This document shows positions 4,254-56,789 of a DNA stretch of 64,000 bases, piece after piece. Made by a program: the position numbers and the translations under genes. The notes under the pieces are model-generated. The model ran no database searches and had not been told where the DNA came from. It saw only the letters and a program-made list of their open reading frames with translations. The stretch is from Mobula hypostoma (Eukaryota), in the NCBI RefSeq assembly GCF_963921235.1, contig NC_086108.1, forward strand, positions 15,376,001-15,440,000. Reading direction: 5' to 3'. Position 1 is the stretch's first letter; the number at the start of each line of letters is the position of its first letter.

Positions 4254-6380
4254 CACATATACAGCTAAGATAGACTGGCAAATGACACTTAAAGGATTGA
4301 CGGTGGATATGCAATGGCAAGCATTTAAAGGTTGCATGGATGAACTACAACAATTGTTCGTCCAGTTTGGCAAAAGAATAAATCAAGGAAGGTAGTGCAC
4401 CCGTGGCTGACAAGAGAAATTAGGGATAGTATCAATTCCAAAGAAGAAGCATACAAATTAGCCAGAGAAAGTGGCTCACCTGAGGACTGGGAGAAATTCA
4501 GAGTTCAGCAGAGGAGGACAAAGGGCTTAATTAGGAAGGGGAAAAAAGATTATGAGAGAAAATTGGCAGGGAACATAAAAACTGACTGTAAAAGCTTTTA
4601 TAGATATGTAAAAAGGAAAAGACTGGTAAAGACAAATGTAGGTCCCCTACAGACAGAAACAGGTGAATTGATTATGGGGAGCAAGGACATGGCAGACCAA
4701 TTGAATAATTACTTTGGTTCTGTCTTCACTAAGGAGGACATAAATAATCTTCCAGAAATAGTAGGGGACAGAGGGTCCAGTGAGATGGAGGAACTGAGCG
4801 AAATACATGTTAGTAGGGAAGTGGTGTTAGGTAAATTGAAGGGATTGAAGGCAGATAAATCCCCAGGGCCAGATGGTCTGCATCCTAGAGTGCTTAAGGA
4901 AGTAGCCCAAGAAATAGTGGATGCATTAGTGATAATTTTTCAAAACTTGTTAGATTCTGGACTAGTTCCTGAGGATTGGAGGGTGGCTAATGTAACCCCA
5001 CTTTTTAAAAAAGGAGGGAGAGAGAAACCGGGGAATTATAGACCGGTTAGCCTAACGTAGGTGGTGGGGAAACTGCTGGAGTCAGTTATCAAAGATGTGG
5101 TAACAGCACATTTGGAAAGCGGTGAAAGATAGAATTTTTTGAGGATGTAACTAGTAGAGTGGATAGGGGAGGACCAGTGGATGTGGAATATTTGGATTTT
5201 CAAAAGGCTTTTGACGAGGTCCCACACAGGAGATTAGTGTGCAATCTTAAAGCACACGGTATTGGGGGTAAAGTATTGATGTGGATGGAGAATTGGTTAG
5301 CTGACAGGAAGCAAAGAGTGGGAATAAACGGGACCTTTTCAGAATGGCAGGCGGTGACTAGTGGGGTACCGCAAGGCTCAGTGCTGGGACCCCAGTTGTT
5401 TACAATATATATTAATGACTTGGATGAGGGAATTAAATGCAGCATCTCCAAGTTTGTGGATGACACGAAGCTGGGTGGCAGTGTTAGCTGTGAGGAGGAT
5501 GCTAAGAGGATGCAGAGTGACTTGGATAGGTTGGGTGAGTGGGCAAATTCATGGCAGATGCAATTTAATGTGGATAAATGTGAAGTTATCCACTTTGGTG
5601 GCAAAAATAGGAAAACAGATTATTATCTGAATGGTGGCCGATTAGGAAAAGGGGAGGTGCAACGAGACCTGGGTGTCATTATACACCAGTCATTGAAAGT
5701 GGGCATGCAGGTACAGCAGGCGGTGAAAAAGGCGAATGGTATGCTGGCATTTATAGCGAGAGGATTCGAGTACAGGAGCAGGGAGGTACTACTGCAGTTG
5801 TACAAGGCCTTGGTGAGACCACACCTGGAGTATTGTGTGCAGTTTTGGTCCCCTAATCTGAGGAAAGACATTCTTGCCATAGAGGGAGTACAAAGAAGGT
5901 TCACCAGATTGATTCCTGGGATGGCAGGACTTTCATATGAAGAAAGACTGGATGAACTGGGCTTGTACTCGTTGGAATTTAGAAGATTGAGGGGGGATCT
6001 GATTGAAACGTATAAAATCCTAAAGGGATTGGACAGGCTAGATGCAGGAAGATTGTTCCCGATGTTGGGGAAGTCCAGAACAAGGGGCCACAGTTTGAGG
6101 ATAAAGGGGAAGCCTTTTAGGACTGAGATTAGGAAAAACTTCTTCACACAGAGAGTGGTGAATCTGTGGAATTCTCTGCCACAGGAAACAGTTGAGGCCA
6201 GTTCATTGGCTATATTTAAGAGGGAGTTAGATATGGCCCTTGTGGCTACGGGGATCAGGGGGTATGGAGGGAAGGCTGGGGTGGGGTTCTGAGTTGGATG
6301 ATCAGCCATGATCATAATAAATGGCGGTGCAGGCTCGAAGGGCCGAATGGCCTACTCCTGCACCTATTTTCTATGTTTCT
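4254..6380 (+). mobile_element. 5'-truncated CR1 LINE inserted in L1 ORF2
   Basis: KSPGPDGLHP, YLDFQKAFD, GVPQGSVLGP, KFVDDTK, LVRPHLEYCVQFW; 3' tail ctattttctatgtttct; ATATA on both sides (4249-4253, 6381-6385) restores L1 ...ASYKPIS. Confidence 0.93.
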
Positions 6381-55020: not shown

Positions 55021-55187
55021 ACGTGAGGGTATACATGACGGTAGCTGTGGACTTGGTGATCACTGAGGTGGTGGAGCCAGTTCGATTTCAGTTAGAAACT
55101 GTGGTCCGTGTGTATTCAGCCAACGAGAGGTTCTGGTACTTCAGCAGAAAGACCTTCAGTGAAGCCTTCCGCATGAAGCTGAAACAG
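55021..55187 (+). CDS. RABGAP1L: RABGAP1L internal coding exon F
   Basis: acttgcag|AC acceptor, CAG|gtaggg donor; 167 nt (phase 1 to 0); (D)[55 protein letters not shown]. From recall, the [11 protein letters not shown] motif matches RABGAP1L rather than RABGAP1. Confidence 0.92.
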
Positions 55188-55630: not shown

Positions 55631-56104
55631 AAAGAAAACACACTACCTCAGGCCCATGGAGGAGAAGAAATGGTCACAAATTAACACTGGAATTTAACAA
55701 GCTGTAACTCTACTTCAGGGTCAGGAATCATCTACACTTTGGTATCTGAGCCCAAGATGCCTGAAGTTGTTATTTAGAGGTGGATCTCCTCTGCTGATAC
55801 CAAGAGATGCATCCCTTCCTTGGCACTAAATGTATTCCTTAGTGTAACACTACATCCCTCCCTTATAGGCATGTTGTTGAATCTTGACACTGATCCCCAT
55901 GTCCCTTCATGATTCCCTTTCCAGGGACTCATCCCTGCTGTGGGGTGAATGTAGACCGTTCCCCATTTAGGAGATTGGAGGCATAGTCACTACCCTGTGG
56001 TAGAGGTGGAGAGAAGGTTGAGAGACAGTTCCACTCCCTCAGGTCAGGAAGAGAACCAGTTCATTCCTTGGTTACAGTTGTTGTCATTATTCTATATGTA
56101 AAAT

Positions 56105-56672
56105 ATATATGGGGTGTCAGGGAGGGGTAGCACCTCTGGTGGGGGAACATGTCGTGTCCTTTTCAGGGCGGTTAGTCCACCTTTGGTCCCCACCTGGCAT
56201 TCAGCTCTCACCTGTGGCTCCCCGTAGCTGTTTGCATGCAACAGCGGCCACAGCCCGGGCAACGGCAACGGCTTCGACAAGCCGGCTAAACCAGGTGATG
56301 GTAGCCGATGGGTCTCAAACCCTCGGTGAGATAGGGAGTTGTCTATTCCAGCATGTGAAGACAGACTTCGGCGGATTGAGCGGACGAGACAAATGGAAGG
56401 TCCAACGGTCAAGAAGGCGGTCTCTGCAAGCGTTGTGGAACGTGTAGAGCAGGACAAGACACAGAAGATGTCCTGGTCATCCACTGCGCCTAGTCCCATC
56501 TCCAGCCGTCTAGACTCTGTCTTGCCACTGGACCCAGATGGGAATTGGGAAGAGAGAGTGAGGCTGATGCTGTGCAACTCTCCCTCACTTAAATCCAAAT
56601 CACGCGCTAGTCTCGACACCATCATTATGGTGTCGAGGTCCTCATCGACGTCAACGATGGACGAACAACTAA
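56105..56672 (+). mobile_element. ~570-bp non-coding retroposon (probably RTE-related SINE) with TSD
   Basis: Perfect 13-bp TSD ctatatgtaaaat at 56092-56104 and 56673-56685; GC-rich structured body; 3' hairpin tcgacaccat/atggtgtcga and short aacaactaa tail. Family assignment is an inference. Confidence 0.7.
56111..56298 (+). ncRNA. Candidate HDV-like (nested double pseudoknot) ribozyme
   Basis: P1 GGGGUGU 56111-17 / ACAGCCC 56250-56 (one mismatch); P2 UCACCUG / CAGGUGA; P3 GGC/GCC; L3 starts UCC, with GG at 56257-58 for P1.1; P4 CGGCU/AGCCG; J4/2 GCUAA with putative catalytic C56286. Folded by eye. Confidence 0.55.
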
Positions 56673-56789
56673 CTATATGTAAAATTCAGGACATTTTATA
56701 GAAAAATCTGACCAGCTTTAGCAATCAAGTAAAAAAAAAGTCTCTAAACATCCCAAAACACTCCATGCAATTAAAGTACTTTTGATGTG

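Follow-up and report, generated by a model that had tools for sequence, protein, structure and literature searches.

A non-autonomous RTE element of Mobula hypostoma with a predicted hepatitis delta virus-like ribozyme head and a hairpin in loop L3

The DNA analysed here, referred to as the window, is a stretch of 64,000 nucleotides of Mobula hypostoma (RefSeq assembly GCF_963921235.1, contig NC_086108.1, positions 15,376,001 to 15,440,000 of the forward strand) that carries, at 56105..56672 of its plus strand, a SINE-like (short interspersed element-like), internally deleted and non-autonomous RTE element, which is 5'-truncated by 3 nt and the head of which is predicted to fold like the self-cleaving ribozyme of hepatitis delta virus (HDV). 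The insertion is real, as it has related copies and is bounded by a perfect 13-nt target site duplication (TSD; 56092..56104, directly repeated at 56673..56685, plus strand) that was already reported in a first-pass annotation of the window and was found again by a dedicated tool. A contig of another organism moreover spans 55900-56091 and then resumes directly at 56673, and since both the element and one copy of the repeat are absent from this empty site, the bounds of the insertion are real as well. An upstream host exon with AG/GT boundaries and a Pfam match to PF12473 (DUF3694, E=5e-8) lies on the plus strand at 55021..55187, i.e., 918 nt from the element, which is in sense orientation, in agreement with the earlier estimate of about 920 nt on the transcribed strand. 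The host gene is presumably RABGAP1L (RABGAP1/RABGAP1L-like), a name with which the DUF3694 match is consistent.

The element belongs to a large family, termed A. In genome word counts, a 24-nt word of the head occurred 1,863 times and a 19-nt word of the tail 581 times, with 0 occurrences of the reversed controls, and both figures are lower bounds on copy number. The window copy is 95-96% identical to the 29 best other copies, and two diverged families, B (78%) and C (69-75%), have the first ~380 nt in common with it. The partner long interspersed element (LINE) was found with a tail pattern that leaves out the usual junction letter and leads to where an open reading frame (ORF) ends. Four extended copies represent elements of ~4.1 kb; identity is 83-92% between nucleotides 4-524 of the element and their 5' end, and 80-86% between its final ~43 nt and the 3' end of the LINE (4/4 long copies in both cases). 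One LINE copy retains a 1,109-codon open frame with endonuclease (PF03372) and reverse transcriptase (PF00078) domains and a zinc-finger-like motif at the C-terminal. A single ORF with apurinic (AP) endonuclease and reverse transcriptase, a short 3' untranslated region (UTR) and a microsatellite tail make up the anatomy from which, rather than from a reverse transcriptase tree, we assign the LINE to the RTE clade. The corresponding 3'-UTR tail of the window copy, with a terminal hairpin and a (CAA)n-type end, lies at 56627..56672 (plus strand).

Neither a tRNA gene search nor Rfam gave any sign of a head derived from tRNA, 7SL or 5S RNA, the head being LINE 5'UTR instead. Since both ends match the RTE LINE and a tRNA head is lacking, the element is, judged by its sequence, an internal-deletion derivative of the 4.1-kb LINE that consists of its first ~524 and last ~43 nt, and a classical SINE transcribed by RNA polymerase (Pol) III is ruled out. 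The notion of a ribozyme-headed non-autonomous family with an expanded L3, put forward in the first-pass annotation, is supported, its partner being identified here as an RTE LINE, whereas the 5' ends assigned to that family at G56111 are not. Other arrangements were seen as well. Several copies (L082, L090 and L175) have a short tRNA-like element placed precisely where the deletion was joined, with the 5' part on one side of it and the same RTE tail on the other, and L209 (reverse strand, 414-467) has the head's initial ~50 nt fused directly to the LINE reverse transcriptase region, which represents a further internal deletion. A related RTE family, termed D (L248-L254, L271, L272; >100 places), is abundant and has several open frames of >1,000 codons, and it carries GC-rich 5' leaders in place of an HDV head. 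One of these leaders may resemble part of a methylmalonyl-CoA epimerase mRNA, which would suggest that family D captured host 5' sequence in place of the ribozyme.

To determine where the family starts, 60 loci were picked with a word from the 3' part or from the interior of the element; 39 of them were distinct and full-span, the other 21 being truncated, incomplete or duplicate. A 9-nt leader upstream of the equivalent of G56111 is present in 37 of the 39. In the 30 copies with a TSD of at least 7 nt, the start lies at -14 to -5 in 28, with a mode at -9, and in none at offset 0, so that the predicted clustering of 5' ends at G56111 did not hold. In another organism, 159 contigs also reach into this leader, and it forms the beginning of families B and C and of the LINE. 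The head of the family consequently opens with two GGGGUGU strands in tandem, each a possible partner of P1', and the element's 5' end coincides with position 1 of helix P1 for the first of them and not for the one at G56111.

At the family level, the helices of the HDV fold follow in the nested double-pseudoknot order (P1, P2, P3, P4, P1.1), and inspection together with tools placed P2, P3, P4, the GG of P1.1 and C56286 where the first-pass annotation had put them. On the plus strand of the window copy, a remnant of the first GGGGUGU (56105..56108), from which G1-G3 are gone and which we regard as the true 5' strand of P1, precedes the J1/2 domain (56111..56202) with the second GGGGUGU (56111-56117), helix P1.2 (56112-56121 with 56193-56202) and the inner stems. 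The 5' strands of P2 (56207-56215) and P3 (56216-56218) occupy 56207..56218 and lead into an expanded L3 of 28 nt (56219..56246), which contains U56219, C56220-C56221 of P1.1, G56224 and a 19-nt inserted hairpin (56227-56245). P3' (56247-56249), P1' (56250-56256) and the GG of P1.1 (56257-56258) make up 56247..56258, and J1.1/4, the P4 hairpin (56269-74 / 56279-84), J4/2 with the putative catalytic C56286 and P2' (56290-56299) make up 56259..56299.

Measured against the descriptor in PMC6326823, the core nucleotides G1, the U and G of the reverse wobble in L3, CC/GG of P1.1 and the C and AA of J4/2 are all present in the family, with an A replacing the C before the wobble G in families B and C. 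The J4/2 C is kept in 16/16 rows of A, 14/14 of B and 11/12 of C. Compared with the usual about 7-8 nt, the L3 of 28 nt is too long to count as short, and its hairpin is present in families A, B and C and in the LINE. An HDV-like descriptor allowing L3 insertions, as the first-pass annotation had proposed, matched the 64-kb window a single time, at the core with C56286. It also hit one of 2,000 dinucleotide-shuffled versions of the element and none of 10 shuffles of the window. The descriptor was made this permissive at a time when the fold had already been suggested, and with L3 held to at most 9 nt it gave no match in the window. In the register of the first GGGGUGU, the full descriptor was passed by 9/27 and 11/28 loci of family A (two overlapping sets), 11/30 of B, 1/28 of C and 4/23 of the LINE, and the complete fold is hence kept in about one third of the sampled family A copies. 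One sub-family of C (L133, L134, L138, L140, L145, L146, L150, L153, L158, L160) starts within J1/2, has neither GGGGUGU strand and is nested in another repeat, which makes it a natural control for the decay of a core without P1.

If P1 is built from the first strand, the second pairs with 56193-56202 into a P1.2 of 10 bp. Out of 89 loci supplied, 10 copies came through the filters, and in all 10 this register folds better by 7.5-10.4 kcal/mol. Two pairs of P1.2 exchange U-A and U-G between families. The resulting layout of the family (P1, 3 nt, P1.2, 4 nt, long P2) is also that of drz-Agam-2-1, in which it accelerates cleavage, a stable P1.2 and short linkers being known to speed HDV-like ribozymes (PMC4908430). 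The register of the first-pass annotation, with P1 starting at G56111, is therefore probably wrong, as the family starts 9 nt upstream and the second GGGGUGU pairs inside J1/2; P1 is probably formed by the first GGGGUGU.

For the analysis of covariation, 43 heads were aligned (11 of the 27 full heads that one sample of family A provided, 5 of 14 LINE, 14 of 27 B and 12 of 14 C heads, and the window copy), in which 93.4% of the cells are paired. Double-sided changes are found at 4 of the 6 pairs of P4 and in the inner stems of J1/2. P3 and P2 are paired in 98% and 95% of cells, respectively, and the L3 hairpin in 95.6%, with a variable loop and one double-sided change in one sequence. Of the covariation that the first-pass annotation had sought in P1 to P4, P4 (and J1/2) thus provides support, and P1, P2 and P3 vary too little to speak for or against it.

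From our point of view, it is likely that the element is a deleted RTE whose HDV-like head cuts 9 nt upstream of G56111, and that the window copy has lost this site and is probably inactive; the head itself is best described as a predicted HDV-like self-cleaving ribozyme with a hairpin in L3. Copies of the family would be transcribed by read-through from host transcripts, whereupon the first GGGGUGU would form P1 and the second would be held in P1.2, pinching P1 and P2 together. The L3 hairpin could protrude on the 3' side of the U·G reverse wobble, a position in which it may be tolerated. Cleavage would free a unit-length RNA, which the RTE protein may then copy by target-primed reverse transcription beginning at the 3' tail.

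Several results weigh against this reading. Neither the window region nor three copies with a full head (L073, L104, L156) matched a ribozyme in Rfam, and in the literature that was searched we found no L3 hairpin in HDV-like ribozymes, though earlier lists of RTE ribozymes could already include L3 inserts. P1, P1.1, P2 and P3 show no double-sided change across the three families and, being invariant, are uninformative for covariation. The 81 cells with double-sided changes exceed the 29±5 of shuffles in a count that is inflated by kinship, and 10 covarying pairs are no more than shuffles give (186/500). RNAalifold, which cannot model pseudoknots and was given rows that are decayed copies, favoured an extended P3 that takes bases of P1' and P2, along with another J1/2 fold, and did not recover P1; this extended P3 is likely a misfold. 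P1' is matched equally well by either GGGGUGU, so that covariation offers no direct means of choosing the register, and none was seen between P1' and the G/A variation in the first GGGGUGU. A sub-lineage in which position 6 of P1 is an A·C mismatch has also spread uncompensated (A in 25/61 copies); mismatches at the top of P1 are common among R2 ribozymes (PMC3774820).

The invariance of the core helices could alternatively mean that the head is a structured, non-catalytic 5'UTR element of the RTE which descends from a ribozyme and acts as an internal Pol II promoter, a protein-binding site or a translation element, with the uniform 5' ends marking the start of transcription. The L3 insert could then block the active site, the related family D has spread without such a head, and in L1Tc the Pr77 sequence is promoter and ribozyme at once (PMC3383444). 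We nevertheless consider this unlikely, as the 5' end coincides with position 1 of P1 and all positions of the catalytic core are kept in three families, which are 75-78% identical, while their neighbours vary.

Still less probable is the model of the first-pass annotation, in which P1 and the cut lie at G56111 and the window copy is able to cut the host intron. This register is accepted by the descriptor, it offers 7/7 P1 pairs in most copies of the family and 6/7 in the window copy, and R2 elements gain doubled, competing P1 strands through 5' duplication (PMC3774820). None of the 30 TSD-defined starts lies at the required offset, however, and the leader is inherited together with the sub-lineage variant, which argues that it is templated by RNA. 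In the window copy the strand at G56111 is moreover engaged in P1.2, which must open, and the remaining mismatch is a G·G at position 4 (G56253), a copy-level change (C in 28/30 copies) that also lengthens the competing extension of P3. The predicted energy is -59.1 kcal/mol with this P1 vs -63.9 kcal/mol without it, a cost of about 5 kcal/mol, and the free fold of 56080-56310 retains both P1.2 and the extended P3.

In the family register, on the other hand, the window copy without G1-G3 is left with 2/7 P1 pairs. It also carries two changes that the first-pass annotation overlooked, namely a 6-nt duplication (56258-56263) that is specific to it (1/30 copies) and G56299T, which breaks the last pair of P2. 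In the R2 ribozyme of the horseshoe crab, inactivity went along with a mismatch in P1 at a distance of three bases from the cut, and a mismatch near this site kept an R2 ribozyme silent until it was corrected (PMC3774820). With the likely cut site lost, the ribozyme of the window copy is probably dead, and given the missing G1-G3 and the G·G mismatch, co-transcriptional cutting of the host intron is unlikely here. That the HDV-like arrangement is a mere chance pattern in a GC-rich repeat, for which the missing Rfam match and the late loosening of the descriptor could be cited, is hardly credible and largely refuted by the shuffles, the covariation in P4 and J1/2 and the position of the fold exactly at the 5' end of the RTE.

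A second feature of these elements concerns their two ends. An 11-bp hairpin at 56612..56637 (plus strand) of the window copy spans the deletion junction (~56626-56628); in the LINE, the two arms are separated by ~3.55 kb. Family D, with a protein identity of 65%, has other letters at both homologous sites, which are still complementary at 11/12 positions. Family B (L101-L130) is a hybrid in which this ribozyme head (77% identical to LINE A) is followed by 5'UTR sequence (91 nt) and 3'-terminal sequence (~55 nt), both from a distant RTE with 23-28% protein identity in the long matches, and its junction is flanked by an 8-bp complement. The own 5'UTR of this donor (L294) is without a ribozyme head, and two further deletion products of the same distant LINE (L277, L279) keep both arms. 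LINE-B loci gave no Rfam ribozyme match, and the LINE-B 5'UTR no match to the HDV descriptor. Three RTE families therefore each have a different 5'UTR motif complementary to their own 3' end (sites in L221, reverse strand, ~1834 and ~5397; L271/L272; L294:1555-1566 and 4506-4516), with the junction between the arms in A and B, and the terminal 3' hairpin covaries among A, C and D. Site-anchored nulls gave 0.005, 0.002 and 0.003 for the three families, at sites chosen after A had been seen. A null over the whole element was weak for LINE A (P 0.027, 0.10) and gave no support in D (1.0, 0.99) or B (0.71). We hypothesise that looping guides the deletion or that the duplex is part of recognition by the protein; a literature search returned no description of 5'/3' pairing in RTE.

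Ribozyme-headed deleted elements, including hybrids, are already known, and what appears to be new here is the structural variant with a hairpin in L3. RTE ribozymes were reportedly described by Ruminski et al. in 2011, and predicted ones are also found in PMC6765202. The closest parallel may be drawn to the short internally deleted elements (SIDEs) of R2 and the R2/R1 hybrid SIDEs in Drosophila (Eickbush and Eickbush, 2012; PMC3414825), in which internal deletion has likewise linked a 5' HDV-like ribozyme to the 3' end of a LINE and of which the hybrids, with the ribozyme of one LINE and the tail of another, resemble family B. R2 SIDEs are specific to ribosomal DNA, whereas the present family belongs to the RTE clade, is dispersed in thousands of copies with TSDs of 7-14 nt and has the L3 hairpin. 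Bipartite non-autonomous RTE LINEs made of a 5' part and a short RTE 3' end (RTESINE1/2, RTE-N1/N2_Lch, MAR4_MD, Bov-A) have also been described, in the excerpt of that paper without mention of a ribozyme structure or 5'/3' pairing (Kojima, 2018; PMC5786205). L1Tc and NARTc share with the present system that an autonomous element and its deleted derivative have a 5' HDV-like ribozyme (Pr77) in common, in their case a minimal fold of 77 nt in the Ingi clade of trypanosomatids (PMC3383444, PMC4035085).

With respect to structure, drz-Agam-2-1 (Webb et al., 2016; PMC4908430) has the same nested double-pseudoknot, structured J1/2, P1.2, short linkers and extended P2. The fold predicted here differs from it by the 28-nt L3 with its 19-nt hairpin, the doubled P1 strand and one base, bulged or additional, where P2 meets J4/2. 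HDV variants that depart from the descriptor and are active do exist, such as a fungal one with an extra base between P2 and P3 (PMC5640933). Among metagenome RTE-like loci, L258:840-915 and L259:667-738 matched Rfam RF02682 at E 4e-4 and 8e-4, below the gathering score, and the small canonical HDV-like folds in these two (and, by eye only, in L268) begin right after (GT)n runs. None of 16 such loci has an expanded-L3 head by eye, and the descriptor, run on 7 of them, matched only L259, with an L3 of 7 nt.

One could speculate further that an active class of HDV-like ribozymes with L3 hairpin and doubled P1 heads RTE LINEs and supplies SINEs with a portable head that does without a promoter, intact at perhaps a thousand loci of this genome, and that looping between the 5'UTR and 3' end of RTE RNAs guides deletion or is needed for recognition. 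This is possible, though in our view doubtful as a whole; such a loop would explain why RTE-dependent SINEs keep both a piece of the 5'UTR and the 3' tail. The complementarity between the two ends also offers a direct test of the question raised by Kojima (2018; PMC5786205), why few LINE clades, and RTE above all, spawn bipartite elements. If the head is active, an entire hairpin can be accommodated in L3 of HDV-like ribozymes, which would mean that a vertebrate class with many copies escapes the usual descriptors as well as Rfam, and with the complete fold kept in about a third of the sampled family A copies, sense-intronic copies elsewhere could cut pre-mRNAs.
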